From positions 8,524 to 72,523 of the forward strand of contig CBDCTA010000005.1 in assembly GCA_965221955.1 (NCBI GenBank): 64,000 nt of DNA, in the 5' to 3' direction. The stretch comes from Gammaproteobacteria bacterium. GTDB taxonomy: Bacteria > Pseudomonadota > Gammaproteobacteria > UBA4575. Positions 17,169-38,701 of the stretch are shown here, in pieces. The first letter of the stretch is position 1, and every line of letters starts with the position of its first letter. The notes under the pieces were generated by a model, which ran no database searches, had not been told where the DNA came from, and was given only the letters and a program-made list of their open reading frames with translations. The translations under genes and the position numbers were made by a program.

Positions 17169-17170
17169 GC

Positions 17171-20759: not shown

Positions 20760-21749
20760 ATGCTGCGATTACTCAGTGTAGTGTTTTTACTATTAATTTC
20801 TACTCAGATATTTGCTGAATGGCAAACTGAAGATGCTGCCATTATGGGCACCACAATTCGTGTTGAAGTGTGGCATGAAGATGCAAAATTGCGTCAACAA
20901 GGAATTGACAAAGTATTAGAAGAAATGGAAAGGGTGAATCGCTTAATGAGCCCTTATATTGAAGATAGTCAGCTCTCAAAAATTAATAAGCATGCACATG
21001 AAGGGCCTGTAGAAGTTGATCAAGATTTATTCGATGTAATTAATAGATCACTGGAAGTTTCACGTCTTACTAGCGGAGCATTTGATATTACTTATGCAAG
21101 CGTTGGTCACTTATTCAACTATCGTAAAGAAATCAAACCAAGTGAGGAAGAAATTGAGCAAGCTAGAACATTGATTGATTATAAAAACGTAGTACTTGAT
21201 AAAGATCATTCTAGCGTTGCCTTTTTAAAGCAAGGTGTAAAAATTGATTTGGGTGGAATTGCAAAAGGGTTTGCAGTGGATCAATCGATTCAACATTTGC
21301 GCGATCTTGGTATTCAGCATGCGCTTGTTTCTGCAGGAGGTGATACGCGTTTATTAGGTGATCGACTTGGTCGAGCTTGGCTGGTGGGAATTCGTGATCC
21401 TTCAAATACAGAAGAAGTGATAGTGATGTTACCTTTACAAGATGAAGCGCTATCGACATCTGGTGATTACGAAAGATTTTTTATTGAAGATGGTGAAAAA
21501 TATCACCATATTATTCACCCCAATACCGGCAAATCGGCAAGCGAAGTTCGTAGTGTTTCGATTCTGGCAAGTGATTCAACCACTACGGATGCACTTTCAA
21601 CTAGCATATTTGTAATGGGAGTAAGCGAAGGCCTTAGCTTACTAAATAGTCTTCAAGGAGTGGAAGGAGTCATCATCGATCAACAAGGCAAGCTCTATTA
21701 CTCAGACGGTCTTCAACAAGAAAAAAACGAAACTCATTCCGACTCTTAA
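20760..21749 (+). CDS. apbE: FAD:protein FMN transferase
   Basis: IMGT, GAFDIT, IDLGGIAKGFAVD, SAGGD, STSGDYERF, YHHIIHP.TG, DALST. Confidence 0.93.
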   Translation: MLRLLSVVFLLLISTQIFAEWQTEDAAIMGTTIRVEVWHEDAKLRQQGIDKVLEEMERVNRLMSPYIEDSQLSKINKHAHEGPVEVDQDLFDVINRSLEVSRLTSGAFDITYASVGHLFNYRKEIKPSEEEIEQARTLIDYKNVVLDKDHSSVAFLKQGVKIDLGGIAKGFAVDQSIQHLRDLGIQHALVSAGGDTRLLGDRLGRAWLVGIRDPSNTEEVIVMLPLQDEALSTSGDYERFFIEDGEKYHHIIHPNTGKSASEVRSVSILASDSTTTDALSTSIFVMGVSEGLSLLNSLQGVEGVIIDQQGKLYYSDGLQQEKNETHSDS

Positions 21750-21764
21750 GTGACGTAAATCACA
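21749..21764. promoter_or_regulatory. Candidate CRP/FNR-family binding site
   Basis: AGTGA-cgtaaa-TCACA, 9/10 match to TGTGA-N6-TCACA, in the intergenic region upstream of the large operon. Confidence 0.4.
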
Positions 21765-22024
21765 CTTAACATAGCTGTAAATTCTTTCCAAATTATGAGC
21801 GGTAATCACTTATACCGTTGATCTGTTTAATTTGACCGCCAATACCTCTGCCACGGTTCCACCCATTTAAGGGGTGAATAATCGACACCATATAGTCCTT
21901 AAAAATCAAGGAGATAGGGCTATTATGTGAGAGCACTTATAGCCGTACTATTTTTGATGTTAGTGGCTGAATCTGTGTGAATTTTTTTAATGAAATGGAT
22001 CTTTAGGTGTTACTGGAGTTGGTT

Positions 22025-24955
22025 ATGAAAAGGAACTTTACACATATTTGGGTTTTGATCGCCGTCGTGTGTTCCGTGTTACTGGTTTTACCGAGTTGTA
22101 AAACAGGCTCATCTGAATCTGCAGATGGATTTACAACTATTGGAAATTATCCAATGGTGTACGTGCAAAGAAGCATGGCTGCTCTGGGTAATCCAACCGA
22201 TGGTGTTACTTTTGCACCGGGTGGCGACCTTATGTACAAAGATGCATCTACAGGTGCCATTACCCCTATTAATATCACGTCTGCATATACGCAAGGTCAA
22301 GGCGATGTGTCTGATCCTGCGGTAAATTATGATGCCACTAAAGTTATTTTCTCCATGCGTAGACCAGGGGACGAAACCTTTAGTCTCTGGGAGATGGATG
22401 TTGCTTCAAGACAAATTTCGCAAGTGATGGCAGATCCCGTTGCGGCAGAATTAGGTGATGATGTAGATCCTGCATATTTACCAGATGGCAGAATTGTATT
22501 TACGTCAAACCGTCAAAAGCGCATGTTGGAAATGCAGCTTGAGCAAAATATTGCTCAACATAAAACACTTGATGAATATGAGCGTGAAGATGTTTTAAAC
22601 CTTCATATATTCAATCCTCTTACTCAAGATATTACACAAATTTCATTTAACCAAAGTCATGATCGCAATCCTTCAGTTTTGAAAGACGGTCGCATTATGT
22701 TTAGTCGTTGGGATCACTTAGCGAATCGTAACCACTTCCCAATATTTACGGTTAATCCTGATGGTACTGATTTATTTGTTCTGTATGGTGCATTTAGTCC
22801 AGGTAATTCATTCCTGCATCCAATGGAACAACAGAATGGAAACATTCTAACTACATTAATGCCTTTGTCTGGTACAGATGAAGGTGGCGCACTGTTTACA
22901 ATCAACACAAATAATTATTCCGAACATTGTGAGCCAGCACCAGGCGTTGCACCGGGTTGTAATGGTCAAATTAAACCGGATGGTGCAGTAAACTTAGCAG
23001 AAGTAACTTTTGACGGAAGCTTCTCACCTGGTGGTCGTTACTCATCACCGGACCCATTATGGGATGGTACAGGTCGAGTACTAATCTCACGTGCAATAGC
23101 GCCTCACCCCGATTTTGGTGGCATTCCTGTAGAAACACATCCTTTTAACGGTAGTACGAAGCAAGTATTCGGACCATCAAACTATCGTATTTATATGATG
23201 GACTTTAATAATGATGTACGTCCTGTTCAGACAGGTGCAGCTAATGGTATGGCCTACCTAGACCCTGTAGCCATATATCCACGTCGTTTAAGTGATGTGC
23301 CTGCAATTCGTCCAGATAAACCTGTTAACCCTGCGATGGTGGTTGAGCCTAATGGCTTAGGTGGCCAAGGTATGGGTGTACTAGGTGTGCGTTCGGTTTA
23401 TCACACAGATTTCTTAGACATCATGGGAGATCGTGTTTTAGTGCCTGCATTAGGTGAAAACATTCCTAAAATTGGTAGCACACCTGATTTGTTAGCGTTA
23501 AAAGATCCTAACAATCCAAGTTATTTGAATCGTCCAGGATATTTTGCACGCGTGACACGTGCATTACCAACACCTCCAGGAATTTCGCGAAGTGCAATTG
23601 GTCGCACTAACTTTGAAATGCAAGAAGTATTAGGTTATGTGCCTGTTGAGCCAGATGGTTCAATTTTAGCTAAGGTTCCTGCAGATTCTGCGTTAACCAT
23701 TGCTGTTTTGGATGAATCGGGACGTGCATTTCAAACTCATACAAACTGGTTACAAGTACGTCCAGGTGAAACACGCACTTGTAATGGCTGTCATTCACCT
23801 AGACGTGCGTTGAACTCTATTAATGTTGCACCAATTGCGGGTAGCCATGTTAATGCATTGGGTGCAGAAACGATGGCTGAAACACGTGCACGTTTAAATA
23901 ATGAAACCGCACCTGCATTAAATTCAAATGTGGAGTTTACAGAGTTCTGGTCAAACGGATTAGAGCAAAACTTTACGCTTTCATTAGCAAATTTAGATAC
24001 ACCGGTTCCAGATAACGGCCGTATTGATTACGTAACGCATATACAACCTATCTTTGAAAAAGATCGTGGTGCAAACACATGTACGAGCTGTCATAACAAT
24101 AATTTGTTAGCGGATCCAGTTTCTGGCGGTTTGACATTAGAAGGTGGTTTGTCAGGTTTTGCAGGACATATTATTTCTTATGATCAACTTATGCGTGGTC
24201 CGTTTAAGGTAGATGAAAATGGAAATCCACTACCACCTATTGTGACCGAAAGTGGTCGTGTTATTTTTCCACGTGGCCCTGCATTAGTACGAGTAGGAAG
24301 TTCAGCAAACAGCTCACGTACTAGTCATTTAATAGAAACGGTTTACAACACTAAGCTGAGAGCAGGTGGAAGCTATTCTTTAGGTTTAGTAGATCATTCC
24401 ACAATGTTATCTGCTGATGAAAAATGGTTGCTTTCTACTTGGGTAGATGTAGGCGCGCAATATACTAACGAGCCTTATGAGCTTGTAAACGGACAATATG
24501 TTGTTCGCGATGCAATCGTTTCAAGTAGAACGGTTAGTCGTTCAGTATTCAATGATCAAATTCATCCGATCTTAAAAGCTGAGTGCATGTCATGTCACGT
24601 TGCAGATGGTTTCGATGCAGAGTCTTCTCAAGATCCAAACTTATTTGCAGATGAAAATGATGAAGACCACGAATTTAATCGATTCGTGCTTACAGGAAAT
24701 CAATCTGGTGACTTTAATGTTACTCGTGCAATGATTAATAATCTTTGTGATCCGATGAACAATAATATTCTACTACGTCCAATTTCGGACAACATTGCTC
24801 CTAACTTACCTCATCCACAAATCCTGGTTGATATTAATGATCCAAATGGTGCCACTCGGCCGGTTTTCCAAGACACTGGTCCTGGATCCTCCTACGACAT
24901 AATTTTGACCTGGCTTATGATGGGTGAAGCTAGTAATCCAACCTGTCTAAATTAG
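22025..24955 (+). CDS. Large lipoprotein: TolB/PD40-like beta-propeller, hydrazine synthase alpha (HzsA)-like middle domain and three c-type heme motifs
   Basis: Lipobox LPSC; propeller repeats (DVSDPAV, DVDPAYLPDGRIVFTS, DRNPSVLKDGRIMFSRWD); LGYVPVEPDGS..KVPAD...WLQVRPGETRTCNGCH; CTSCH; CMSCH; SD GGAG before ATG 22025. Confidence 0.78.
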   Translation: MKRNFTHIWVLIAVVCSVLLVLPSCKTGSSESADGFTTIGNYPMVYVQRSMAALGNPTDGVTFAPGGDLMYKDASTGAITPINITSAYTQGQGDVSDPAVNYDATKVIFSMRRPGDETFSLWEMDVASRQISQVMADPVAAELGDDVDPAYLPDGRIVFTSNRQKRMLEMQLEQNIAQHKTLDEYEREDVLNLHIFNPLTQDITQISFNQSHDRNPSVLKDGRIMFSRWDHLANRNHFPIFTVNPDGTDLFVLYGAFSPGNSFLHPMEQQNGNILTTLMPLSGTDEGGALFTINTNNYSEHCEPAPGVAPGCNGQIKPDGAVNLAEVTFDGSFSPGGRYSSPDPLWDGTGRVLISRAIAPHPDFGGIPVETHPFNGSTKQVFGPSNYRIYMMDFNNDVRPVQTGAANGMAYLDPVAIYPRRLSDVPAIRPDKPVNPAMVVEPNGLGGQGMGVLGVRSVYHTDFLDIMGDRVLVPALGENIPKIGSTPDLLALKDPNNPSYLNRPGYFARVTRALPTPPGISRSAIGRTNFEMQEVLGYVPVEPDGSILAKVPADSALTIAVLDESGRAFQTHTNWLQVRPGETRTCNGCHSPRRALNSINVAPIAGSHVNALGAETMAETRARLNNETAPALNSNVEFTEFWSNGLEQNFTLSLANLDTPVPDNGRIDYVTHIQPIFEKDRGANTCTSCHNNNLLADPVSGGLTLEGGLSGFAGHIISYDQLMRGPFKVDENGNPLPPIVTESGRVIFPRGPALVRVGSSANSSRTSHLIETVYNTKLRAGGSYSLGLVDHSTMLSADEKWLLSTWVDVGAQYTNEPYELVNGQYVVRDAIVSSRTVSRSVFNDQIHPILKAECMSCHVADGFDAESSQDPNLFADENDEDHEFNRFVLTGNQSGDFNVTRAMINNLCDPMNNNILLRPISDNIAPNLPHPQILVDINDPNGATRPVFQDTGPGSSYDIILTWLMMGEASNPTCLN

Positions 24956-24976
24956 TAATTAAAACAGAGGTTTGTC

Positions 24977-25465
24977 GTGCAATTATTGCGGCTGGTGTTA
25001 CTACTAGTCGCAGTAGCACCGTTATTCTTATTCCAAGGATGTGATAGTACGTCCAACGAGCCACTTCCAAACAGTGGCCAAAGTCTATGCTTTGATCTTT
25101 ACGAGACGTGCATAGATCCAATTTTTCATAACCTCACTTCTACAGGTAATTCTTGTTCACAGGCAGGTTGTCATAACCCACCTATTGGCCAGGATGGGTT
25201 CTTTTTGTTTCCTGCAGCAGGTATGGGGTCTACAGAAATGATGAATAATTTTAATCAGGTTGAGTCAAGAACACTTAATAACAATTTATTGCTTAGCAAA
25301 GCCACCGGTAATGCTCACGGTGGTGGACAACAATTAAGAGTAGGAGATCTTTGTTATACCGCTATTCAAGAATGGAGTGTTATTAGTTTTAACGGTGGTG
25401 CATGTCCTCCGCTTCCCAGTGGCTGTCCTATGCCAGCACAAATACCACTTTTCTGCGGGCCGTAA
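24977..25465 (+). CDS. Cys-rich lipoprotein, putative atypical cytochrome c (CX4CH)
   Basis: Lipobox FQGC; IDPIF...CSQAGCH...HGGG resembles the third heme domain of the upstream protein. Confidence 0.62.
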   Translation: MQLLRLVLLLVAVAPLFLFQGCDSTSNEPLPNSGQSLCFDLYETCIDPIFHNLTSTGNSCSQAGCHNPPIGQDGFFLFPAAGMGSTEMMNNFNQVESRTLNNNLLLSKATGNAHGGGQQLRVGDLCYTAIQEWSVISFNGGACPPLPSGCPMPAQIPLFCGP

Positions 25466-25509
25466 TTGGTATGAATACAACCAATAATAAACATATGGAT
25501 CGTTACAGC

Positions 25510-26280
25510 ATGAAGCTGAACATAACTCACTTATTTTACGTGATTTTATTTTTTGTTTTGTTATTTGCGCCATTTACTAATGCTTTTGCAGATCTATTTG
25601 GAAAAAAAGAATATCAGCGCGTCAAGATTGTAGATCCCTATATTGAATTACACACAGGTCCAGGTCGAGGTTATCCAATTTTTCATGTAGTCAAACGTCA
25701 TGAGTGGATTGACATCATGAAGCGTAAAACAGATTGGTTCAAAGTGAAAAATGATCGAGGTGTTGAAGGTTGGGTGAGTCGCAAGCAAATGGAGCAAACA
25801 TTAACCGTGGCAGGAATTCCTAAGTCATTTAGAGATGTACTCTATGACGATTTCCTACACCGACGTTTAGAATTTGGTATATCTGCAGGTGAGTTTGATA
25901 ACGATCCAATCGTTTCTGCAAGGCTTGCATACAAATTTTCAGAAAATATCGCACTTGAGTTCCAAGTTTCTAAAGTTGCAGGAAAGTTATCAAGCTCAGA
26001 TATTTATGCCGTCAATCTAGTTTCTATGCCTTTTCCTGATTGGCGACTAACGCCACATTTCACTATTGGTTACGGGCGTTTTGAGAATGAACCTAAAGGT
26101 TCGCTCATTCAAGATGCTGAAACTGAAGATGACCTAGCTAATTATGGTTTAGGGATTCGTTATTACTTAACAAAAAGATTCTTTCTGCGTGGAGATTATC
26201 GACGTTACATCGTTTTATCAGAAGACGATAGAAACGATGAGTTTGATGAATTCAGCGCAGGGGTTTCATTTTTTTTCTGA
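25510..26280 (+). CDS. SH3-domain + outer-membrane beta-barrel protein (GltA/B-like)
   Basis: ELHTGPGRGYPIF...DWFKV...GWV bacterial SH3; alternating beta strands ending GVSFFF; start uncertain (25471 or 25510). Confidence 0.72.
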   Translation: MKLNITHLFYVILFFVLLFAPFTNAFADLFGKKEYQRVKIVDPYIELHTGPGRGYPIFHVVKRHEWIDIMKRKTDWFKVKNDRGVEGWVSRKQMEQTLTVAGIPKSFRDVLYDDFLHRRLEFGISAGEFDNDPIVSARLAYKFSENIALEFQVSKVAGKLSSSDIYAVNLVSMPFPDWRLTPHFTIGYGRFENEPKGSLIQDAETEDDLANYGLGIRYYLTKRFFLRGDYRRYIVLSEDDRNDEFDEFSAGVSFFF

Positions 26281-26302
26281 TGCTTAACTCATAGGACATC
26301 AT

Positions 26303-26941
26303 ATGAAAGTTAAATTACTTATTATTTTATTACTCATGTTTGTGTTACATCCGGTATGCGCTGATGATGAAGCGCCTGAACCTGAATCAACCCAAGAACA
26401 AGTGATTGAACCGGATATCTACCGTAGAGATATCGTCGTACCTCGCATTGATACGGAAAATTTTGAAATCACTGCGTATTACGGCGTATTGGATATCGAA
26501 GATTTTGGTACTGAGCCTGCATATGGATTGCGAGCGGCTTATCACGTAACTGAAGATTTTTTCATAGAAGGTGCAATAGGGATGTCTGAAACATCAGATG
26601 AAACTCTAGAGAATTTGACCACCTTTAATATCCTGCAAGATGAAGACGTTACTTATTACAACGTATCAATTGGTTACAACATCTTTCCTGGCGAGGTGTT
26701 CCTAGGTAGCGATATTGCCATGACCAGTAGTTTTTACCTGATGTTTGGAGTAGGCAACGTTGAGTTTAATGAAGAAGATGAGTTTGCTTATAACATAGGT
26801 TTTGGGTTGAAAGTGTTACCTACAGATTGGTTGTCATTCCGATTTGATGTGCGTGACATCGTATATGAAACAGATTTGTTAGGGGATAACGAATTCACCA
26901 ATAACTTTGAAGTTACGGCAAATGTAGGAGTGTTTTTCTAA
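26303..26941 (+). CDS. Outer-membrane beta-barrel protein (GltA/B-like)
   Basis: Signal peptide, GLRAAYHVTEDFFIE, RFDVRD, C-terminal NVGVFF beta-signal. Confidence 0.78.
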   Translation: MKVKLLIILLLMFVLHPVCADDEAPEPESTQEQVIEPDIYRRDIVVPRIDTENFEITAYYGVLDIEDFGTEPAYGLRAAYHVTEDFFIEGAIGMSETSDETLENLTTFNILQDEDVTYYNVSIGYNIFPGEVFLGSDIAMTSSFYLMFGVGNVEFNEEDEFAYNIGFGLKVLPTDWLSFRFDVRDIVYETDLLGDNEFTNNFEVTANVGVFF

Positions 26942-26989: not shown

Positions 26990-27496
26990 ATGAGTAGAAA
27001 TAAGTTATTAGTAATTGGGTTAGTAGCGTTAATTACGTTAAGCATTACCAGTGTTGTGTCGTTTGCCAAAATCAAAGCAAACAGCGCACCAGATTTTGTC
27101 TTGAAAAGCGCAGCAGGAAAGAATGTTCGCTTAAGCGAACTTAAAGGGCGTGTCGTCTTGTTGAACTTTTGGGCAACTTGGTGTGGTCCTTGTGCAGAAG
27201 AAATTCCTCATCTTAATGAACTGCATGCATCAATAGATCCTTATGACTTTGAATTGCTGGGTATCAATATTGATGAAGATCAATCGAAAGCGGTTCATTT
27301 GGCAAAAAAGTTAGATGTTAATTTTCCTATTTTATTTGATGTAGATAAAAGCGTGAGTAAGAACTTTGATATTAAAGCGATGCCTACCACGATCATTATT
27401 GATCGTGAAGGAAAAATTAGACATGTAAATAAAGGTTTCAAGAAAGGTTATATAGAGCGTTACCACAAACAAGTACAAGCCTTGAGAAAAGAGTAG
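26990..27496 (+). CDS. TlpA family thiol-disulfide oxidoreductase
   Basis: APDFVL, NFWATWCGPC, AMPTTIIIDREG. Confidence 0.9.
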   Translation: MSRNKLLVIGLVALITLSITSVVSFAKIKANSAPDFVLKSAAGKNVRLSELKGRVVLLNFWATWCGPCAEEIPHLNELHASIDPYDFELLGINIDEDQSKAVHLAKKLDVNFPILFDVDKSVSKNFDIKAMPTTIIIDREGKIRHVNKGFKKGYIERYHKQVQALRKE

Positions 27497-27502
27497 TTCA
27501 AA

Positions 27503-27775
27503 GTGATTATGCTAAAAAAATTAAAATGCACAGCAGCCAGGCTGATAGTTTTTGGTTTGATAATTTCCATTGGAGCGTGTTCATCATTTAGTTTGCCAAA
27601 CATATCTAACATAGAACCTTGGGTGCCTCCATATGAACGTGAATATTTGGCTGACCCTATTATGAGTTTTAATAAAGATCCACTATCTAATAAATATAGA
27701 CAACATGTTTTTAATACACGTGAAGGTGCGCGAGGTGCGGGTTATGCGCATGGTGGTGGTTGTGGTTGCAATTAA
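27503..27775 (+). CDS. DUF4266 lipoprotein
   Basis: Lipobox IGAC; PWVPPYEREYLADPIM...REGARG...GGGCGCN C-terminus. Confidence 0.85.
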   Translation: MIMLKKLKCTAARLIVFGLIISIGACSSFSLPNISNIEPWVPPYEREYLADPIMSFNKDPLSNKYRQHVFNTREGARGAGYAHGGGCGCN

Positions 27776-27792: not shown

Positions 27793-28915
27793 ATGATTAA
27801 CCTTATATTTAAAACTTATTTATTAATACTTTTGCTAAGTATTTTTACCAATACATGGGCCGAAGTGTTACCCGAAGAACGGGCTGATATTGGGTATCAC
27901 TATTATGATGGTGGTGGGGTAGAAGTAGATGGTGCCACCATGTTGGTGCGTAAAAACTTTGCAGGTAAATATTCTATTTATGGTGGGTATCACCACGATA
28001 GCATAAGTGGTGCTTCACCTGATGTATTAGCTGGTGCAAGTAAATATGATGAAGAGCGTGATGAATACACGATTGGTGGTACGTATTTACGTGATAACAC
28101 CTTAATGGATCTTTCTTACACTTATAGTGATGAGGATGACTACGAATCTAATACAGTAAGTTTCGATATTTCGCATGAAATGTTTGGTGCCATGACAAAG
28201 ATGTATATCGGCACATCGATCGGAGCCGATGATGTTGAACGAACTGATTTGCCAAGTTTTGAAGAAGACTTAGATCGATATTCTTTTCGAGCTGGAATAT
28301 CGCAAGTGATCACCAAAACCTTCGCGATGGCAGTTTGATTATGAAGCCACAGTAGAAGAAGGCTTTCTAAATAACCCATATCGATTCGTATTTTTAAATG
28401 GCGTATCTCTTGGTAGTGGATCAGAAGAATATCCCGATACCCGTACAGGACAAGCTTATGCTCTAAAGGGAATTAAATATTGGCAACATCGCGCCTCCAC
28501 ATCTCTCGGTTATCGGTTTTATAGGGACACTTGGGATGTTCGTTCCCATACCTTAGACCTTAATTATTCACAATACATTGGAAATCAATGGGTTGTTGAC
28601 GTTTATGGACGTTATTACACGCAAGATAAGGCGGATTTCTATAGCGACAATTTCACCGCCCAGTTGAGGTATATGGCGCGAGATAAAGAGCTAAGTAGTT
28701 TTGATAGTTTTGCAGTAGGCGGGCGACTTCGTTACGACTTATTTAAGGATTATAAATTTTTACGTACCGCTTCATTAAATCTCGCAGTTGAGTATTTGGA
28801 TTATGACTATGACGATTATTCCGGAATTGAATCAGTGGCAGATACTGCAAGTTTAGGCGGTGGATATTCATTTGATGCAACTACTATTCAATTTTACATT
28901 TCAACTTGGTTTTAA
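27793..28915 (+). pseudogene. DUF3570 outer-membrane beta-barrel, interrupted by a 1-nt frameshift at ~28334-28336
   Basis: Frame 1 stops at TGA 28336-28338; the frame from GAT 28337 reads open DYEATVEEGFLNNPYRF...YPDTR...RFYRDTWDVRSHT...ARDKELS...ISTWF; joined product about 373 aa. Confidence 0.8.
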
Positions 28916-28963: not shown

Positions 28964-29512
28964 ATGTATAAAAAATTTATTTTATTTATCAGCTGCATTT
29001 TGCTGGCATATGTTTGCAGTGTCGGAGCAGATATAGGCGAACTAAACGCAAGTGAAGATCAAGATTTTCAAGATTTAGATAATGATATACAAGATTTAAA
29101 AGAAGAAGTGCTTGAGCTTAATCGTGATCTTTATATCTTAGAAGAAGAGCTACTTTATCCATCCAGCACCCAAGTCGCAGTTTATGTTTCTGTAGATGTT
29201 GGTGATTTTTTTGATCTTGATTCTGTTCAAGTCATGTTAAATGAAAAAATAGTAGCAAATTATTTATATACGGAACGTGAAGTAGATGCTTTGTTACGCG
29301 GAGGTGTGCATCAAATTTATATCGGAAACTTACCCTCAGGTGAACATGAATTAGTTGCATATTTTGTTGGCCGTGGCCCTAAAGGTAGAGATTTCAAGCG
29401 TGGTGCGAATCGTATCATAGATAAAGGTTTGGGGGCTAAATATTTAGAGTTAAAAATTACCGACCGGACTCCAAAGCATCAGCCTGACTTTATTGTTAAA
29501 GAGTGGGAATAA
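28964..29512 (+). CDS. Conserved periplasmic coiled-coil protein of Glt-like clusters
   Basis: Signal peptide, LKEEVLELNRDLYILEEELLYP, YLYTEREVDALLRGGVHQIY; no HTH visible. Confidence 0.7.
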   Translation: MYKKFILFISCILLAYVCSVGADIGELNASEDQDFQDLDNDIQDLKEEVLELNRDLYILEEELLYPSSTQVAVYVSVDVGDFFDLDSVQVMLNEKIVANYLYTEREVDALLRGGVHQIYIGNLPSGEHELVAYFVGRGPKGRDFKRGANRIIDKGLGAKYLELKITDRTPKHQPDFIVKEWE

Positions 29513-31491: not shown

Positions 31492-34289
31492 AACTTACAC
31501 ATAAAGTTATTGTAATAATGGCGATTGCAGCCATTGTGGTTTCGTGTGGAAGCTTTGGTAAAAACCGCGGTGAAACAATAGGCAGTGTCAGTAAAAAACG
31601 CGTTAAGGTAAAAGAAGACTTACCCGTTCAAAGTAGTCGTAGCAAAGCGATTAGTCAATACAGAAAGCTGGTTAATGAAGATCCTGATAACGTGCACCCA
31701 GAGGTGCTGCGTAGGTTAGGGGATTTGCGCATGGAAGAGACAGAGGACCATCTTGCGGAAAAAGTTCAAGTGCCAGATAAGCATACTTATGCTGAAACCA
31801 TCAAACATTATGAAGATATTTTAGCTAAGCATGCAAACTACAAAGGCCGGGATCGTGTGTTATATCAAATTTCACGTGCCTATGAGCTCAGTGGTGAACA
31901 CGAAAAAGCACTGAAAGCGCTAGATCAATTGGTTTATGAATATCCTGATTCCCCTTATTTTGCAGAAACGCAGTTTAGGCGTGCAGAAATCTTATTTGTA
32001 GAAAAGCAATATTCTCAAGCCGAGAATGCCTATGAGTCTGTAATTCGACAAGGACCGGAAGGTCGTTTTTATATTCATTCTTTATACAAGCATGGTTGGT
32101 CGCATTTCAAACAAGTCGATTATGACTATGGTCTTCCATCATTTAACACTGTACTAGATAACTTGTTAGTTAATGGCGTGGAAGCAGAGCAAATTGCACA
32201 ACTTTCACAGCCTGATCAGGAATTGCTAGACGACACACTTCGTGCAATTAGCCTAAGTTTTGCTTACCTAGGTGGGCCAGATGAAGTGTCTAATTTTTTT
32301 GCAGACTCAGGCAGAAAGCCACATGAAATATTAGTTTATGAAAGATTGGGTAAACAATATTTAGAAAAACGACGTTGGAGTGATGCTGCAAATACCTACA
32401 GACAGTTTGTTGAGACACATCGCTTTAGTCCTCAAGCACCTCATTTTCAAATTAAATCGATTGAAGCTTACAAGAAAGGGAAGTTCCCATCTGAAGTGTT
32501 GCGTGCCAAGAAAGAGTTTGTGGTCGATTACAATTTAAAATCTGAATACTGGGCGCATAACGATATTTCACAATCAGATGATATTGTTTCATTGCTTAAG
32601 TCAACGATCACTGATTTAGCTAAACACTATCACTCAGTAGCACAAAAAGAACGTAAACAACCAAAAGAATTCTACGATGAAGCTGCTACATGGTATACCG
32701 CTTACTTAGAATCATTCCCACAAGATGAAAAAGCTCCTGAGATGAATTTTTATCTTGCGGAAGTGCGATATGAAACTAAACAATATGCAGGTGCTGTACA
32801 GGCTTATGAAAAAACAGCATATGGATACAAGAAGCATCCAAAGTCAGCTGAAGCGGGTTATGCAGCAATCATTGCTTACAACGAATGGCTGAAAGTAGAA
32901 AAACAAGCTGCACAGCAATCAGCAATTAAAAATCAATTAATCGATAGTTCATTTAGGTTTAACGAAAATCATCCTGAGCATCCTGAAGTGGCTAAGGTGA
33001 TGACGGTTACTGCAGAAGAACTTTATGCACGCAAAGATTTTAATCGTGCTACAAAAGCGTCAGATATTATTATCAATGATCATCCGAGCGCAGATAAAAA
33101 ATTGATGTTGTCCGCGTGGACAGTGAAAGCGAATTCAGCATTCGACACAGCACAATACGCAGATTCAGAAAAAGCTTATGTGGAAGCTTTACGAAGAGTA
33201 GAAGCCAATAAAAAACTACGCGACCCATTAAAAGATCGGCTTGCAGCATCTGTATATAAACAGGGTGAAGCGAGTAAAAAAGAAGGCGATTTAGAGGCTG
33301 CGGTTTCTCACTATTTAAGAGTAGGGCAAGTTGTTCCTGATGCCGAGATACGTGCGACGGCGCATTATGATGCTTCCGCAGCGTTATTAGAACTTGAAGA
33401 TTGGGGGCGTGCGTCAAGAACATTGGAGGATTTTCGAGCGCGTTTTCCTAAACACGAACTACAGGGTGATGTAACTAAAAAGTTAGCCGTTTCTTATGAC
33501 AAAGGCGGACAGCATCTTAAAGCCGCAAAAGAATACGAAGCGATTGGTGCAAGTTCTAACGATCCCCGTCTAAAACGCGAAGCACGCTTACAAGCGGCAG
33601 ACCTATATGGCAAAGGTGGAGATTTTTATGGCGCTGAAAAAAGTTTGCTTGCCTATATTGAAGAAAATCCAAGACCTGTTGAACCTGCTATGGAGGCCAT
33701 GCATAAACTTGTCGTTATGTATACCGAGCGAAAATACATTGATGACAAACTTAATTGGCAACGCAAAATCATAGAAGCAGACGCACGTGCAGGTGCTGAA
33801 CGCAGCAGTCGTACTAAATTTTTAGCTGCTACTGCATCATTAGATTTTGCAAAAATAGAATATGACGCATATAGCCAAATCTTTTTGATTCATCCGTTAG
33901 AGAAAAATTTAAAACGTAAGAAAAAGCAAATGCAAGTAGCACTAGATGCTTATGAAGCAGCTAGTAATTATAAAGTTGCGCAAGTCACAACAGCCGCTAC
34001 ATATTGGACGGGGAAAATTTACCAAGATTTTGCGGTGGCAATGATGGAGTCTGACCGGCCAGGCAAGCTTTCAGGTGAAGAGCTTGCTCAATATGAAATT
34101 TTATTAGAAGAACAGGCTTACCCATTTGAAGAACAAGCGATTGAGGTGCACGAATTAAATGCTTCACGTATTTCTGACAACGTCTATGACGAATGGGTAA
34201 AAAAGAGTATGACTGAGCTAGCTAAGCTTGCGCCAGCACAATATGTAAAAGCTGAAAGGAGTGAAGACCTTGTTCAGAACATCTACTAA
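31473..34289 (+). CDS. Large TPR lipoprotein (GltD/AgmU-like)
   Basis: Lipobox VVSC; many TPRs (YKHGWSHFK, FYLAEVRYE); C-terminal YEILLEEQAYPFEEQAIEVH. Confidence 0.75.
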   Translation: MVEVLVKLTHKVIVIMAIAAIVVSCGSFGKNRGETIGSVSKKRVKVKEDLPVQSSRSKAISQYRKLVNEDPDNVHPEVLRRLGDLRMEETEDHLAEKVQVPDKHTYAETIKHYEDILAKHANYKGRDRVLYQISRAYELSGEHEKALKALDQLVYEYPDSPYFAETQFRRAEILFVEKQYSQAENAYESVIRQGPEGRFYIHSLYKHGWSHFKQVDYDYGLPSFNTVLDNLLVNGVEAEQIAQLSQPDQELLDDTLRAISLSFAYLGGPDEVSNFFADSGRKPHEILVYERLGKQYLEKRRWSDAANTYRQFVETHRFSPQAPHFQIKSIEAYKKGKFPSEVLRAKKEFVVDYNLKSEYWAHNDISQSDDIVSLLKSTITDLAKHYHSVAQKERKQPKEFYDEAATWYTAYLESFPQDEKAPEMNFYLAEVRYETKQYAGAVQAYEKTAYGYKKHPKSAEAGYAAIIAYNEWLKVEKQAAQQSAIKNQLIDSSFRFNENHPEHPEVAKVMTVTAEELYARKDFNRATKASDIIINDHPSADKKLMLSAWTVKANSAFDTAQYADSEKAYVEALRRVEANKKLRDPLKDRLAASVYKQGEASKKEGDLEAAVSHYLRVGQVVPDAEIRATAHYDASAALLELEDWGRASRTLEDFRARFPKHELQGDVTKKLAVSYDKGGQHLKAAKEYEAIGASSNDPRLKREARLQAADLYGKGGDFYGAEKSLLAYIEENPRPVEPAMEAMHKLVVMYTERKYIDDKLNWQRKIIEADARAGAERSSRTKFLAATASLDFAKIEYDAYSQIFLIHPLEKNLKRKKKQMQVALDAYEAASNYKVAQVTTAATYWTGKIYQDFAVAMMESDRPGKLSGEELAQYEILLEEQAYPFEEQAIEVHELNASRISDNVYDEWVKKSMTELAKLAPAQYVKAERSEDLVQNIY

Positions 34290-34917
34290 ATTATTGTTCG
34301 CGAATATTATTTTGGTTTTAAGCATTACGCTATTAACCAGTTGTGCAAATATGCCAAGTCTTAAAAAGCCAGCATCAAGTTCTAAAAGTGCAGAAAAAAC
34401 TGAAAAATCTACAGATAAAATTTTAGCGCAACCAAATTTTAGAATCAGTAAAAAAACAGCAGCTGCTTACAATGATGCATTAAAACATATGCGTGCCAAA
34501 AATTACGATACAGCAATTTTGGAAATGCAAAAAGTTGCCAAGATGGACCAACGCATTTCAGGGCCTTGGGTAAATATGGGGGTGGCTTATAAAGAACTGG
34601 GTAATGCAAAAAATGCAAAAATTGCATTTGAAAAGGCAATAATTATTAATCCTAATAATCCTTATGCCTTGAATCAGTTGGCCATTTTAAAGCGCGAAGA
34701 TGGCAAGTTTGATGAAGCAGAGAAATTGTATAAGAAAGCATTGGCCGCATATCCGGATTATAAAAACGCTCATCTGAATCTAGCTATTTTGTGTGATGTT
34801 TATTTAAGGAAAATAGGCTGCGCGTTGGACCATTATCAAAAATATTTGAATCTGTCCGGTGGCCAGGATAAGCAAGTAATTGCTTGGATGTCGCAGTTAA
34901 AAAAGCAAGGTAGCTGA
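34261..34917 (+). CDS. TPR lipoprotein (GltE/AglT-like)
   Basis: Lipobox LTSC; TPRs, AHLNLAILCDVYL. Confidence 0.75.
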   Translation: MKTLFRTSTKLLFANIILVLSITLLTSCANMPSLKKPASSSKSAEKTEKSTDKILAQPNFRISKKTAAAYNDALKHMRAKNYDTAILEMQKVAKMDQRISGPWVNMGVAYKELGNAKNAKIAFEKAIIINPNNPYALNQLAILKREDGKFDEAEKLYKKALAAYPDYKNAHLNLAILCDVYLRKIGCALDHYQKYLNLSGGQDKQVIAWMSQLKKQGS

Positions 34918-34922
34918 GTCAA

Positions 34923-35207
34923 ATGAAAACAATATCAATACTTATCAGCATGCTTTTGCTCTGTTGCATAGCATCAGCCGAGGACTCTCCTCGTGTACAG
35001 AAGGCTGGACCTACACAAGAGTTACAAGGGATAGATGTTATTGGTAACCGTGAGTTACCTAAAGCATTGGTTATCGTGCCGTGGAAAGCTCCAGAACCAG
35101 GTGAGCTCGATGGTTCGCCTTTGCAAAGTTTAATAGATGAAGTGCTAGGCCCTGTAGATAAGGATGTGCACAAAAGAAAAGTGAGTTATTACGAACAATA
35201 TTATTAA
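34923..35207 (+). CDS. Small exported protein (GltF-like)
   Basis: Signal peptide; IDVIGNRELPKALVIVPW; position between the TPR gene and the motor genes. Confidence 0.62.
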   Translation: MKTISILISMLLLCCIASAEDSPRVQKAGPTQELQGIDVIGNRELPKALVIVPWKAPEPGELDGSPLQSLIDEVLGPVDKDVHKRKVSYYEQYY

Positions 35208-35218
35208 TGGTTTTTTAT

Positions 35219-35245
35219 TCCAGTTATGAAGCTGGATTTTTATTT
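35219..35245 (+). terminator. Possible intra-operon hairpin/terminator
   Basis: TCCAGTT-atga-AGCTGGA followed by TTTTTATTT. Confidence 0.35.
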
Positions 35246-35271
35246 AAGCGTTAAACGCTAAGGAGCAAAAA

Positions 35272-36012
35272 ATGGAAGACAACGGGTCAGAAATCATCAC
35301 TACAGATGGTTCAGAGACTGTAATGATGGATGGAGCAGAAATGCTTGTTACTCCAGAAGTACATGATCCGAGCCTATATGAAACTGTAGTTTCATTTTTC
35401 CAATCGGGTGGACCATTCATGATCCCGATTGCAATTATTCTTGCAATTGGTATTGCGATTGCAGTTGAAAGATATCTTTATCTTTCTGCGTCTCGCACAC
35501 GTAATCAACTTGCTTGGGGCAAGTTACAGTCTGCCTTACAAAGTGGAAATTTATCCCAAGCAATGGGTTTTGCAGAAAAATCCAAAGCCGCAGTAAGTCG
35601 CATTATTCATTATGGGTTTCTACGTGCAAAAACATCACGTCGCCGTGATGATGTTGAAATTGCAATGGAAGAAGGTTTAATGGAAGTGTTACCTAAACTT
35701 GAAAAGCGCACACACTACCTTGCAACTTTTGCAAATATTGCAACATTACTTGGATTGCTTGGAACCATTATTGGTTTGATTGGTGCCTTCACATCCATTG
35801 CTGAAGCGAATCCTGCAGATAAAGCCGATATTTTATCTGCAAATATATCAGTAGCGATGAACACTACAGCGTTTGGTTTGATGGTCGGTATTCCTCTTTT
35901 ACTTATCCATGCATGGCTATCTACTAAGACTACTGAAATTGTAGACAGTCTTGAAATGGCATCTGTGAAGGTTCTTAACTTTGTAACAGATAATAAACCC
36001 GCTGCTGCGTAA
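35272..36012 (+). CDS. MotA/TolQ/ExbB proton channel (AglR-like)
   Basis: GGPFMIPI, ATLLGLLGTIIGLIGAF, ISVAMNTTAFGLMVGIP. Confidence 0.9.
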   Translation: MEDNGSEIITTDGSETVMMDGAEMLVTPEVHDPSLYETVVSFFQSGGPFMIPIAIILAIGIAIAVERYLYLSASRTRNQLAWGKLQSALQSGNLSQAMGFAEKSKAAVSRIIHYGFLRAKTSRRRDDVEIAMEEGLMEVLPKLEKRTHYLATFANIATLLGLLGTIIGLIGAFTSIAEANPADKADILSANISVAMNTTAFGLMVGIPLLLIHAWLSTKTTEIVDSLEMASVKVLNFVTDNKPAAA

Positions 36013-36045
36013 TACTTGTAAGTAATAAACTAAAGGTAAACCAGA

Positions 36046-36546
36046 ATGCGTAATAAGAGACGTTGGAAAAAACGCTTTCAGAAAAATGAAGCGGAACTAA
36101 GTGTTACGCCATTTATGAATTTGATGGTAATCCTGGTTCCTTTCCTACTCATCATGTTGGTCTTCGCCAAGATTACAGTCTTGGAATTACACCTTCCTGC
36201 TGCATCAAACGAAGCGAAACCGAACGAACGCGAATTGGTTTTAGAAATCATCGTTAAAGAAGATTATCTAATTGTTCAAGATAAAAATGGTAGTTTTCAA
36301 AGATACAGGATTGATAAGAAAGAAGAAGCCTATGATGTTGAGTTACTTTCGCTCACGCTTCAATCTCTCAAGAACAAACATCCTGAAAACGTTGCAGCAT
36401 CCATTCTGCTAGAGCCAGACATTGGTTATGAAAGCTTGGTTTTGGTTATGGATGCGGTGCGTGCGATCGATATAGAAGATGATCTAGGTAATTTTACACG
36501 TGCTGAACTTTTTCCAGAAATATCATTAGGTGATGCTCCTGCCTAA
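36046..36546 (+). CDS. ExbD/TolR family protein 1 (AglQ-like; TM Asp replaced by Asn)
   Basis: SVTPFMNLMVILVPFLL TM; IGYESLVLVMDAVR; LFPEISL. Confidence 0.85.
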   Translation: MRNKRRWKKRFQKNEAELSVTPFMNLMVILVPFLLIMLVFAKITVLELHLPAASNEAKPNERELVLEIIVKEDYLIVQDKNGSFQRYRIDKKEEAYDVELLSLTLQSLKNKHPENVAASILLEPDIGYESLVLVMDAVRAIDIEDDLGNFTRAELFPEISLGDAPA

Positions 36547-36586
36547 GATAAGTATGAGTTAAGTTTAAGGAAATAGGTAATAAAGA

Positions 36587-37099
36587 GTGAACGATCGAAG
36601 AGTAAAACGTATGGAACGTCAACATGGGCGAAATAAACAACCGCCTTTTAATGTTGTTTCATTAATGGACATTTTTACCATCTTGGTATTCTTCTTATTG
36701 GTGAATACCAATGAGATTACCCCATTGCCTAATCCTAAAGGAATTGAAATGCCAGAGTCGATTTCTGAGGTAACTCCTCAGGAATCAGTAGTTGTAATGC
36801 TGAGTAAAGAAGCAGTACGACTTCAAGGCGAAGATGTCATTACGATAGAAGAGGTGATGAAAGAAGATTCTATTGAGGTTTCTTTATTTGTAGAGAAATT
36901 AAAGCAACTTGCGAATGAAGTTGAGCCAGTATCTGAAGAAGATCCAGAACGGGAAGTTACTATTATGGGTGATAAAGAAGTACCTTATAAAGTGCTCGAC
37001 CGCATAATGCGTTTATGTGCAAGTTATGCTGGATTTTCAAAAATTTCGTTATCTGTAATACAAAAAGAAACGCAACTAGAGTCCCATATAGAGTCGTAA
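36587..37099 (+). CDS. ExbD/TolR family protein 2 (AglS-like)
   Basis: NVVSLMDIFTILVFFLL TM; IMGDKEVPYKVLDRIM. Confidence 0.87.
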   Translation: MNDRRVKRMERQHGRNKQPPFNVVSLMDIFTILVFFLLVNTNEITPLPNPKGIEMPESISEVTPQESVVVMLSKEAVRLQGEDVITIEEVMKEDSIEVSLFVEKLKQLANEVEPVSEEDPEREVTIMGDKEVPYKVLDRIMRLCASYAGFSKISLSVIQKETQLESHIES

Positions 37100-37101
37100 G
37101 C

Positions 37102-38082
37102 ATGGCTGCAGTAATAAATAATTCATATTTCCCACACGATTTACCCTGGACAATAAATCCAGAACAACAGGCTCGTTTTAATAAATTATTACGTTGGTCG
37201 GTTGCGGCAATAATATTCTTGGCATTTTTATTTTCATTTTTGCCATTGCCAGAACTTGAAGAGCCCGAAAAACAAGAACCAGAACGTTTAGTAAAATTAA
37301 TTCCTAAGGTGGAAGTGCCTCCGCCACCACCGCCTAAAATAGTACCGGTAGAAACAAAGGTTAAACCGAAACCAAAACCAAAGGTTAAACCGAAACCACA
37401 ACCAAAAAAAGAACCGATTAAAACGGCTGCTAAACCTAAGAAAGCACCGATCCCACAGAAATCTGCTAAAGAAGTTGCTGCAAGCTCAGGTTTGTTAGCT
37501 ATGAAAGATGATTTATCAGATATTAAAAAGAGTTCATCATCTGCAGCATTAGGAGAACGATCGCTTAATACTAGTGGTACAACTGGACAAACAACGAAAC
37601 GCTCACTTGTAACGAAGAACTATGGCAAAGCTAGCGGTGGAATCAACACGGCTAGTTTAAGTACAAACACCGGAGGCAATGGTCTTGGTGGGCGCGCAGC
37701 AGGTTCTATTGGTGGTTCCGGTATTGGTGGGGGAGGAACAGGTTCGGGTAGTGGAGATGGTTCCGGTAATGGCGATGGGAGTGGTTATGGTAAAACGCGT
37801 GATTTAGAAAAAATTCAAATCATGTTTGATCGCAATAAGAGCGGATTATTTACACTTTATAATCGTGAGTTGCGCAAAGATGCATCTTTACAAGGTAAGG
37901 TTGTGCTTAACATTACGATTGCACCATCGGGTAAAGTTACCAGCGCAAGCATAGTTTCCAGCCAATTAGGAAACTCACAACTTGAAGGTAAAATTCTTCA
38001 ACGTGTGAAACTAATTAACTTTGGAGCAGAAGATGTTCCACCGTTCAATTTCAATTACCCTATTGATTTCTATCCTACTTAA
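37102..38082 (+). CDS. TonB-like energy transducer with AgmX/PglI (GltG/GltJ)-type C-terminal domain
   Basis: Single TM, Pro/Lys repeats (KVKPKPKPKVKPKPQPK), Gly-rich linker, LYNRELRKDASLQGKVVLNITIAPSGKV. Confidence 0.82.
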   Translation: MAAVINNSYFPHDLPWTINPEQQARFNKLLRWSVAAIIFLAFLFSFLPLPELEEPEKQEPERLVKLIPKVEVPPPPPPKIVPVETKVKPKPKPKVKPKPQPKKEPIKTAAKPKKAPIPQKSAKEVAASSGLLAMKDDLSDIKKSSSSAALGERSLNTSGTTGQTTKRSLVTKNYGKASGGINTASLSTNTGGNGLGGRAAGSIGGSGIGGGGTGSGSGDGSGNGDGSGYGKTRDLEKIQIMFDRNKSGLFTLYNRELRKDASLQGKVVLNITIAPSGKVTSASIVSSQLGNSQLEGKILQRVKLINFGAEDVPPFNFNYPIDFYPT

Positions 38083-38701
38083 ACAAGCACTGCCTTCGTT
38101 ATTACTGTTGGTTTTGCTTGTTTCTGTTAACGCTACTCAACCCAATTGGGTGTTAAGCGGCACATTCTTAAATGCGGATAATACGCATGCCATGTTTGTT
38201 GACGAAAATGGAGATGAATTATTACTAGAGCTTGGTGATGATATCCAAGGCTGTGATCTTGTGGATGTACTACAAGGCTCTGCAAGAATTCAATGCAGTG
38301 GTAAAGAATATGTTTTAGAACTTCGCAATAGCGTTGGCGATGTTCTTCTACAAGCTGAATATGAACAATCATTGGCACAAACAAAAACCGTCGTATTGTC
38401 CAAAGAAGAAGTAGCCGATTATATAAAAGAGAAACAACGCTTGGTTTCAGAGATTGGCTTTTTGCCATTAGTAGAGGGTCAAGAAGTCGTCGGGTTTACC
38501 TTATCTAAGATTGAGCCTGATACCAAAGCTGCTATGTTAGGGCTAAATAATGGTGACATCATCAAAGCAGTAAATGGCGTTCATGCTTCAGAGTCAGAGC
38601 AGTTTATACAAACGGTAGAAGGGTTATCGGATGCGCCAGAAGTGACGGTAGAAGTGGATCGTGATGGTCAGTTAATGGCTTATACTTATATATTAGAGTA
38701 G
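38033..38701 (+). CDS. GspC-like PDZ-domain protein
   Basis: TM, LSGTF...AMF HR-like segment, C-terminal GFTL..IEPD...LGLNNGDIIKAVNG PDZ; start uncertain, overlaps upstream gene. Confidence 0.6.
   Translation: MFHRSISITLLISILLKQALPSLLLLVLLVSVNATQPNWVLSGTFLNADNTHAMFVDENGDELLLELGDDIQGCDLVDVLQGSARIQCSGKEYVLELRNSVGDVLLQAEYEQSLAQTKTVVLSKEEVADYIKEKQRLVSEIGFLPLVEGQEVVGFTLSKIEPDTKAAMLGLNNGDIIKAVNGVHASESEQFIQTVEGLSDAPEVTVEVDRDGQLMAYTYILE

Follow-up and report, generated by a model that had tools for sequence, protein, structure and literature searches.

A 64,000-nucleotide stretch of a gammaproteobacterial genome assembly (Gammaproteobacteria bacterium, lineage UBA4575; GenBank assembly GCA_965221955.1, contig CBDCTA010000005.1, positions 8,524 to 72,523), referred to here as the window, carries at its positions 20760-38701 a cluster of 18 genes on the plus strand in which two blocks of envelope genes are combined. 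The first block comprises an ExbB-type subunit, two ExbD-type subunits, a TonB-like transducer, three tetratricopeptide repeat (TPR) proteins, a small protein, and a coiled-coil/immunoglobulin-like (Ig-like) protein, whereas the second, redox block comprises a heme-carrying beta-propeller lipoprotein (the heme propeller), two small beta-barrels, and the TlpA, DUF4266, DUF3570, and ApbE proteins. We tentatively propose that the two blocks form one envelope-spanning system, in which a proton motor and its scaffold would act on an outer-membrane redox lipoprotein complex. The arrangement of the locus is not due to chance, because the stretch from the flanking MoeA gene to the flanking dehydrogenase gene is collinear in all nine loci of the same family with enough sequence, and because the partnership of the two blocks recurs across many families. 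A tenth same-family locus is interrupted by contig ends and keeps the same order over the sequence that it has.

To what extent the two blocks occur together was measured in an even sample of about 400 genomes of the class Gammaproteobacteria, used as one set for all queries; the protein in the GltD position of the scaffold was searched at E ≤ 1e-20 (400 genomes, G271 being left out) and a heme-propeller profile at E ≤ 1e-15 (401 genomes). A GltD-like gene was found in 77 of 400 genomes and the heme propeller in 54 of 401, and 51 of these 54 genomes were GltD-positive. DUF3570 (PF12094) was found in 91 of 401 genomes, a tally that includes one canonical match in the unpublished genome G063 (used for no other result), and its genes were divided into canonical (≥160 bits) and divergent (80-160 bits) ones by a 160-bit line that was drawn after the data had been seen. 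Canonical DUF3570 genes numbered 54, with 27 in GltD-positive genomes and none of the 54 within 26 kb of a GltD-like gene. In contrast, 58 of the 61 divergent genes were in GltD-positive genomes, 39 of the 61 had a GltD-like gene on their own contig within 26 kb (in 25 cases within 6 kb), and most of the others lie on a different contig from it in assemblies that are fragmented. Put without reference to the line, not one of the 39 DUF3570 genes close to a GltD-like gene reaches 160 bits. The two kinds also differ in how the Pfam profile matches, from its start in canonical genes and mostly from about position 100 or 220 in divergent ones, and a heme gene lies within 9 kb of 44 of the 61 divergent genes. 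Related genomes in this sample are not independent, and the carriers span dozens of families. An initial annotation, made from the letters of the window alone, had staked its reading beforehand on how often these modules occur together in other genomes; set against the background of 77 in 400, co-occurrence (51/54 and 58/61) is frequent, not rare.

The genes of the cluster were taken from a listing of open reading frames and their translations, together with Pfam and NCBIfam matches. They are tightly packed, with spacings of 0-64 nucleotides or slight overlaps, the sole exception being the gap of about 260-280 nucleotides between ApbE and the heme propeller. From 5' to 3' they are as follows:

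20760..21749, plus strand: ApbE, FAD:protein FMN transferase with a signal peptide (PF02424, 286 bits); gene 1 of the cluster
22028..24955, plus strand: 975-aa beta-propeller heme lipoprotein, homologue of the hydrazine synthase (HZS) alpha subunit (HZS_alpha 70.8 bits; PD40)
24977..25465, plus strand: 162-aa lipoprotein with a single CX4CH, seen in the translation (no Pfam family at E up to 1)
25507..26280, plus strand: outer-membrane protein with an N-terminal SH3 domain and a small beta-barrel (SH3_3 28 bits; OMP_b-brl 47 bits)
26303..26941, plus strand: small OMP_myx_plus beta-barrel of 212 aa (TIGR04565, 144 bits; cut-off 60)
26990..27496, plus strand: TlpA/ResA-type periplasmic thiol-disulfide oxidoreductase with CGPC (AhpC-TSA 107 bits; Redoxin)
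27509..27775, plus strand: DUF4266 lipoprotein with a C-terminal CGC(N) (PF14086, 76 bits)
27793..28915, plus strand: DUF3570 protein of the divergent subfamily, in two frames (PF12094 matches in both)
28964..29512, plus strand: 182-aa coiled-coil/Ig-like protein (no Pfam or NCBIfam family)
29503..31491, plus strand: 662-aa TPR and coiled-coil protein in the GltC position (TPR families)
31473..34289, plus strand: 938-aa TPR lipoprotein in the GltD position (TPR_6, TPR_16, YfiO)
34261..34917, plus strand: 218-aa TPR lipoprotein in the GltE position (TPR families)
34923..35207, plus strand: 94-aa secreted protein in the position of the "additional gene" or GltF, assigned by position (no family)
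35272..36012, plus strand: ExbB/TolQ/AglR-type proton channel subunit (PF01618, 97.6 bits)
36046..36546, plus strand: ExbD/TolR-type subunit 1 (PF02472, 55.6 bits)
36587..37099, plus strand: ExbD/TolR-type subunit 2 (PF02472, 57.8 bits)
37099..38082, plus strand: TonB-like transducer with an AgmX/PglI-type C-terminal domain (NF033768, 60.9 bits, cut-off 40; TonB_C)
~38021..38701, plus strand: GspC-like PDZ protein, start codon uncertain (GspC models 59.5-67.9 bits, below their cut-offs; weak PDZ matches)

The initial annotation had described about 17 tightly packed co-directional genes headed by heme lipoproteins. Packing and strand hold, the number is 18 (the 182-aa and GspC-like PDZ genes had gone unmentioned), and the head of the cluster is ApbE, the heme lipoproteins being genes 2 and 3.

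How the two blocks lie relative to each other was followed in twenty loci, chosen for having both genes on one contig. Of these, 17 contain the full unit of heme propeller, SH3-barrel, barrel, TlpA, DUF4266, and DUF3570; the incomplete ones are L031, without TlpA and DUF4266 matches, L034, without a heme match, and L042, where the stretch ends inside the unit. The unit is placed either directly upstream of the 182-aa gene on the same strand (collinear loci) or several kilobases off and divergently transcribed (split loci). ApbE is present in 11 of the 20 fetched stretches, and its position varies among relatives between the head, the place after DUF3570, and that just before the 182-aa gene. 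Closer to the source organism, strong matches to the GltD-position protein are present in 13 of the 14 further genomes of its genus and, beyond the genus, in 4 of the family's 10 other genera.

The 182-aa gene opens the motor and scaffold block in every locus examined, and an alignment of its product, scanned against genome_contigs, recovered at least 582 loci. The best 80 of these are nearly all labelled Gamma- or Proteobacteria, with a few odd labels, and their carriers include Steroidobacteraceae, Woeseiaceae, Acidiferrobacterales, Sedimenticolaceae, Ectothiorhodospiraceae, Halothiobacillaceae, and Ca. Thiodiazotropha, as well as the isolate Lentisalinibacter sediminis C23, which has at least ApbE, TlpA, and the core (L078). 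Hidden Markov models (HMMs) built from the fetched loci were run over these best 80 loci, a set that is biased towards kin of the composite loci. Downstream of the 182-aa gene, among the 49 loci with at least 9.5 kb of sequence, the GltD-position gene was present in 49, the small gene, ExbB, each ExbD, and the TonB-like gene in 48 each, and the GspC-like gene in 11; the last is confined to collinear-type loci. Upstream, among the 50 loci with at least 9 kb, ApbE or TlpA was present in 43, the heme propeller in 35, the barrels in 26, and DUF3570 in 17. At least one redox gene stood upstream in 50 of 50 loci, 49 found by script and one, the TlpA of L066, which overlaps the anchor gene, added from the listing. 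On the long contigs of L096, L101, and L119, several genes of the system are present in multiple fragments, which points to many frame breaks, possibly long-read assembly errors.

The motor and scaffold genes correspond to a unit that has been described before. Luciano et al. (2011, PMC3169522), in the parts of that paper used here, define a core complex of gltC, D, E, and G together with aglR, Q, and S in one cluster with one additional gene, and report it from Gammaproteobacteria, one betaproteobacterium, Geobacter, and Fibrobacter. Its function was given there as unknown, it was regarded as insufficient for gliding, and most of its carriers were not known gliders. The window has the same eight genes in the same order and in a single cluster, a fit by architecture only; the order of the genes at 29503-38082 also fits the gaps between the locus tags in the accessible Fig. 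S1 of the same paper, e.g., Tgr7_0536-0543 without 0540. From that listing of locus tags, the additional gene of the core complex would correspond to the 94-aa gene here. The TPR-TPR-TPR-small-ExbB-ExbD-ExbD-TonB order that had been read from the window at the outset thus agrees with the gammaproteobacterial core complex (PMC3169522, same parts). What differs is that the 182-aa gene, the redox genes, and the barrels are not among the genes listed in the parts of Luciano et al. (2011) cited here, and that an OMP_myx_plus barrel is present in the window.

The individual proteins of the core vary in how closely they match existing models. The three TPR proteins fit GltC, GltD, and GltE in size and order, with a single match to a Glt model among them, that of the GltE-position protein to NF033758 (gliding_GltE, E 1.4e-11), which at 44 bits is below the 225-bit cut-off. 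The GltD-position protein matches the YbgF model with 97.4 bits against 90.1, over five repeated TPR stretches. Between 35272 and 37099, PF01618 occurs once and PF02472 twice in adjoining genes, corresponding to a motor of one TolQ/ExbB-like and two TolR/ExbD-like subunits. The TonB-like protein has a short N terminus, one transmembrane helix, a Pro/Lys-rich spacer, a Gly/Ser-rich stretch, and the AgmX/PglI-type C-terminal domain, and in a search of the whole genome (2.69 Mb in 29 contigs) it was the sole match to NF033768 above the cut-off, at 64.2 bits. Its Pfam matches are TonB_N and TonB_C only, FHA, ZnR, and GYF domains being absent, and about 30 residues precede the transmembrane helix; the full GltG and GltJ models gave weak C-terminal matches only. 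NF033759, tried as a further Glt model, turned out to be the model of an unrelated TraA exchanger. In the Pfam scan of the locus proteins, no VWA domain, no Plug or TonB_dep_Rec match, no binding protein, and no inner-membrane transporter was found; nor was a GltI-like protein recognized, although models for GltH, GltI, and GltK are lacking.

The model of the 182-aa protein (pLDDT 86) begins with a signal or anchor segment, continues as a helix some 60 residues long, and ends in a beta-sandwich; Foldseek against the Protein Data Bank (PDB) returned no match at E ≤ 1e-3, merely generic beta-sandwiches. No useful Pfam match at E up to 1 was obtained for this protein, the 94-aa protein, the CX4CH lipoprotein, or the twin-arginine (Tat) protein of the third module described below. 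A complex prediction for the GltC-position protein (residues 42-662) and the OMP_myx_plus barrel (residues 21-212), made with their own alignments and without controls, scored 0.00 and speaks neither for nor against a contact.

Among the barrels of the redox block, the one at 26303-26941 is the sole match in the genome above the cut-off of TIGR04565 (OMP_myx_plus, a family named for its myxobacterial members), and the SH3-barrel at 25507..26280 scores 48.6 bits, below the 60-bit cut-off; the family is one that we take to be that of the GltA/GltB-type barrels. All three barrel-type proteins of the locus end in aromatic residues (FFF, VFF, and TWF), and an aromatic C terminus is typical of outer-membrane proteins. 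Of the Agl/Glt kinship that the initial annotation had proposed, that of the transducer is supported by the AgmX/PglI tail model, and TIGR04565 is passed by one barrel. The annotation's picture of a redox module nested between Glt-like barrels and the TPR genes has to be given up, however. Both small barrels stay with the redox genes in every fetched locus, whether collinear or split, and therefore belong to the redox block rather than being Glt barrels that flank an inserted redox module.

The heme propeller consists of a beta-propeller, a heme middle domain, and a C-terminal heme region, with three CXXCH motifs; the first two occur without exception in the 28 homologues compared, the third in 14 of the 28. 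A profile of 17 homologues aligned at E 1.2e-21 with the HZS alpha subunit of anammox bacteria (PDB 5C2V chain A, 5c2v_A), the match being made up of four collinear stretches that extend from the propeller into the C-terminal domain. The AlphaFold model has a mean pLDDT of 62.9, with the propeller and middle domain confident and the C-terminal third poor, and its top Foldseek match in the PDB is the same chain (E 9.7e-28, TM 0.61 on the target), followed by TolB proteins (E ~1e-11). As judged from these alignments and the predicted model, the heme propeller is a full-length distant homologue of HZS alpha with the same fold and architecture. It differs from HZS alpha in its identity of about 17%, in being a lipoprotein of a gammaproteobacterial host, and in that genes for the beta and gamma partners were not recognized beside it at this locus. 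That it might itself be a hydrazine synthase was ruled out by the equivalog model NF052339, on which it scores 84.5 bits against a cut-off of 800. In the part of the source cited here, more than 600 structural homologues of HZS alpha have been reported, with no experimentally confirmed function among the top matches (PMC12758564). In one complete genome of the class sample (G068:C1:1998599-2001698), the heme-propeller gene is present in two frames, adjoining the monoheme gene of the third module; the same genome has neither a GltD-like gene nor a DUF3570 match, and the locus may be a decaying remnant of the system.

In the small heme lipoprotein next to the heme propeller, of 162 aa and with its CX4CH motif, the lipid cysteine is immediately followed by Asp in 12 of 14 homologues. 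In Escherichia coli, Asp in this position retains a lipoprotein in the inner membrane, and by this rule the protein would be retained there. It was found in collinear-type loci only, both among the fetched loci and in the 80-locus scan.

The flavin and thiol genes were assigned in the initial annotation to a flavinylation cluster, and the comparison with the clusters of ApbE, DUF3570, a Trx-like protein, and DUF4266 in Meheust et al. (2021, PMC8238504, cited in part) agrees with this. Such clusters were described there as fed by DsbD, 316 of them being without DsbD, and canonical DUF3570 as flavinylated at two [S/T]GA[S/T] sites. All four families are present in the window, with signal peptides, the CxC end of DUF4266, SGAS in DUF3570, and no DsbD in the cluster; one DsbD and the Ccm genes are encoded elsewhere in the genome. 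The difference is that the DUF3570 of the window is of the lower-scoring subfamily, matching Pfam mainly from about position 100 on. It reads DSISGAS and then LAGAS, so that site 1 is SGAS and site 2 AGAS, and the first site has the form D-[ST]-[IV]-[ST]-[SG]-A-S in all but one of 22 linked homologues. The terminal CxC of DUF4266 is kept in 25 of 25 homologues and the CGPC of TlpA in 29 of 29. A second cluster of TlpA, DUF4266, DUF3570, and ApbE, canonical in kind, lies at C22:369724-372716, with an intact DUF3570 (228 bits) and without Glt-like genes nearby.

In the window, the DUF3570 reading frame is split into 27793-28338 and 28310-28915. The alignment with eight same-family relatives places one extra base near 28325-28333, and in all eight the gene is intact as a single frame of 372-375 aa. 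Among four public sequencing runs compared at DUF3570 as Logan contigs, the site is covered in X1 only and not in X10, X11, or X3; the X1 contig (325 nucleotides, depth 4.3, four other differences) lacks one base at 28332. Because the extra base is absent from all eight relatives and from the X1 contig, the break is most likely an assembly error or a strain-level lesion; it is no property of the system itself. A programmed frameshift and an alternative genetic code were considered and rejected, the eight relatives reading one frame without the extra base.

In the split loci, three more genes stand between the two blocks, co-directional with the core. They encode (i) a protein of about 400 aa with one CXXCH (monoheme), (ii) a lipoprotein of about 750-850 aa with two CXXCH and a Laminin_G_3 domain, and (iii) a protein of about 510-530 aa with a twin-arginine signal. 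The monoheme gene was found in 47 of 400 class genomes, 46 of them GltD-positive by comparison of the genome lists, and 32 of 48 full-length copies lie within 1.5 kb of a heme-propeller gene; in Pfam at E up to 1, its product matched PSD2 only (E 0.07). In most other carriers this third module is beside the heme propeller, upstream of the core. In the genus of the source organism it is elsewhere in the genome, here on another contig (G000:C4:134413-139414).

The 5' flank of the cluster is formed by molybdenum-cofactor genes on both strands, with MoeA directly adjoining on the opposite strand, and the 3' flank by a FadE-type acyl-CoA dehydrogenase. The 5' genes, at 16131-20618 of the window, are MoaA, a MogA/MoaB-like gene, MoaE, and MoeA; MoeA is also next to ApbE in the same-family loci and in L023. 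Further upstream, two tandem paralogues of 493 and 480 aa at 8629-11572 each contain a DUF4139 domain, and a 763-aa open reading frame on the minus strand at 5708-8481, without a Pfam family at E ≤ 1e-8, is preceded on the same strand by a small DnaJ-domain protein. Terminator-like sites numbered 19 against 14.1 ± 3.9 in shuffled sequence and promoter-like sites 38 against 60 ± 7. One terminator-like hairpin lies 3' of ApbE at 21798-21819. Another, with a T-run, lies at 35219-35236 in the 64-nucleotide gap between the 94-aa gene and ExbB, and it may separate or attenuate the scaffold genes relative to those of the motor.

In the proposed system, the barrels, DUF3570, and DUF4266 would form an outer-membrane platform that holds the heme lipoprotein. 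Electrons would pass from DsbD to TlpA, on to the CxC of DUF4266 and the FMN on DUF3570, and from there to the hemes, or from them. The TPR scaffold would couple this platform to the ExbB/ExbD/TonB-like proton motor, which would do mechanical work on it (exposure, gating, release, or relocation of the lipoprotein), in the manner of TolQRA on TolB-Pal. A redox-coupled export, service, or import function, as the initial annotation had it, is likewise something that we still infer.

A parallel to such a platform has been proposed for M. xanthus. In a structural model from 2025 (PMC11761067, in the part used here), the barrels GltA, GltB, and GltH and the lipoprotein GltK would expose the propeller lipoprotein CglB at the surface, GltC would dock the N termini of the barrels, and GltF would connect GltC and GltD with the TonB-like domain of GltG. 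The redox block has the same kinds of parts, namely barrels, a small lipoprotein, and a large propeller lipoprotein, and by analogy the heme propeller may parallel CglB. The window further shares with Agl-Glt and Agl-Nfs the channel of one TolQ/ExbB-type and two TolR/ExbD-type subunits, the three TPR proteins and small protein in the same order, the TonB-like transducer with its AgmX/PglI C-terminal domain, and the OMP_myx_plus barrel. It differs from them in having neither FHA, ZnR, or GYF domains nor a VWA adhesin, in that GltH, GltI, GltJ, and GltK were not identified (models being lacking for GltH, GltI, and GltK), and in the addition of heme, flavin, and thiol genes and of the coiled-coil/Ig-like protein.

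Two other envelope systems are also comparable. Tol-Pal exerts a proton-driven pull on an outer-membrane lipoprotein complex, and the window resembles it in its TolQ/TolR-type motor matches, TolA/TonB-like transducer, TolB-like propeller, and YbgF-like TPR signal. However, only YbgF passes, the Tol models scoring 58 against 221 bits (TolQ), 33-34 against 127 (TolR), and 25.5 against 343 (TolB); moreover, the propeller of the window has hemes and a lipid anchor, and no Pal-like OmpA-domain lipoprotein is present in the locus. In porin-cytochrome conduits such as MtrCAB, a lipoprotein cytochrome at the outer membrane is attached to a barrel with a redox carrier inside it. No homology is known between these and the window, which has flavin and thiol carriers instead of a decaheme wire and a proton motor attached.

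The core complex is thought to be the origin of the Agl-Glt and Nfs machines of Myxococcus, and a wider version of the proposal, which we hold to be possible yet doubtful, extends to them. The core complex in most carriers would then be the proton-driven part of an outer-membrane redox machine, with the flavinylated DUF3570 barrel, the CxC lipoprotein, the GltA/B-type barrels, and the heme lipoprotein acting as a motor-operated electron conduit or surface enzyme; the module of two cytochromes and a Tat protein would join it in most genomes, and Myxococcus would have kept barrels and motor and swapped the redox lipoprotein for an adhesin.

Several observations weigh against a single system of the kind proposed. 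Among the 77 GltD-positive genomes, 56 have the heme propeller and/or a divergent DUF3570, and 21 have neither. Two cores from other families, L016 and L017, are without any redox gene or barrel in the fetched flanks and consist of the 182-aa gene, the TPR genes, the small gene, and the motor only; therefore, the core can exist without the redox block. Kinship among the sampled genomes means that the counts are not independent, and the line between canonical and divergent DUF3570 was, as stated, chosen late. Most divergent DUF3570 proteins have SSAS in place of the tested [S/T]GA[S/T], SGAS being found in the close kin of the window. If the DUF3570 frameshift is real, the system would be impaired in this organism, and the stretch was not found in any RNA run searched. 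Finally, the DUF3570 barrel, the surface exposure of the heme protein, and the contacts between the proteins are assumptions of the proposal.

The presence of a Ton/Tol-type motor would fit dedicated import, in which the ExbB/ExbD/TonB-like motor would drive uptake, for example of a metal or metal chelate, through the barrels, DUF3570 would be a gated channel, and the substrate, once in the periplasm, would be reduced or processed by the heme, flavin, and thiol proteins, on the pattern of reductive iron assimilation. The redox block always contains barrels, and Meheust et al. (2021, PMC8238504), in the part cited, note links between flavinylation and iron uptake, with 25 DUF3570 clusters containing the VIT1 iron transporter. 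We nevertheless consider import unlikely, as the Pfam scan of the locus recognized neither a TonB-dependent receptor or plug domain nor a binding protein or inner-membrane transporter, known Ton import systems do not include three large TPR proteins, and the C terminus of the TonB-like protein is of the AgmX/PglI type. Less probable still is a role of TlpA, DUF4266, DUF3570, and ApbE in maturation or repair, keeping cysteines reduced for heme attachment or repairing oxidized envelope proteins, with the heme propeller as the sole working enzyme and a motor that merely positions it. Cytochrome c maturation is a common role of TlpA/ResA-type proteins, the NCBIfam matches of the TlpA gene include the ResA and DsbE models, and TlpA or ApbE alone adjoins the core in 12 of 50 loci. 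However, the genome has its own Ccm genes and DsbD elsewhere as well as the second, canonical cluster, and the divergent DUF3570 co-occurs specifically with the GltD-like gene, which argues for a dedicated part rather than a general helper.

That the cluster is made up of two or three neighboring operons without a shared function appears very unlikely. The two terminator-like hairpins, after ApbE and after the small gene, could mark their borders, and the 21 of 77 cores without a redox block fit such independence; yet terminator-like sites are no commoner than in shuffled sequence, the partnership outlasts rearrangement across many families, and both the heme propeller (51 of 54 genomes) and divergent DUF3570 (58 of 61 genes) are GltD-positive far above the background of 77 in 400. 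We give hardly any credence to a gliding or polymer-trafficking machine like Myxococcus Agl-Glt or Agl-Nfs, despite the core genes, TPR order, OMP_myx_plus barrel, and AgmX/PglI tail held in common, as no more than about 30 residues of the TonB-like protein are cytoplasmic and FHA, ZnR, and GYF domains are absent from it, the Pfam scan of the locus recognized neither a VWA adhesin nor a GltI-like protein, and the core is, in the parts of PMC3169522 used here, insufficient for motility and carried mostly by bacteria not known to glide.

The core complex and the DUF3570 flavinylation cluster are both of already known kinds, and it is their conserved union with the HZS-alpha-like lipoprotein, the OMP_myx_plus-type barrels, and, in most genomes, the third module that is new relative to the literature searched. 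No paper linking the core, flavinylation, and HZS-alpha modules was found in that literature, which did not cover the supplementary cluster table of Meheust et al. In the part of their text cited here, Meheust et al. (2021, PMC8238504) left open the purpose of DUF3570-based electron transfer. Three open questions, namely the role of the core in non-gliders, the purpose of this electron transfer, and the function of the HZS-alpha-like protein, are tied together by the fact that the heme propeller and divergent DUF3570 are nearly confined to GltD-positive genomes and usually adjoin the core there. They thereby become one testable hypothesis, that of a proton motor working on an outer-membrane redox complex. 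In the parts of Luciano et al. (2011, PMC3169522) used here, gltA and gltB were placed solely in Myxococcales and Bdellovibrionales; the findings suggest that the history of the barrels in the Myxococcus gliding machine goes back further than was assumed. As the carriers include sediment, sulfur-cycling, and marine Gammaproteobacteria, the chemistry of the system may matter for element cycling.

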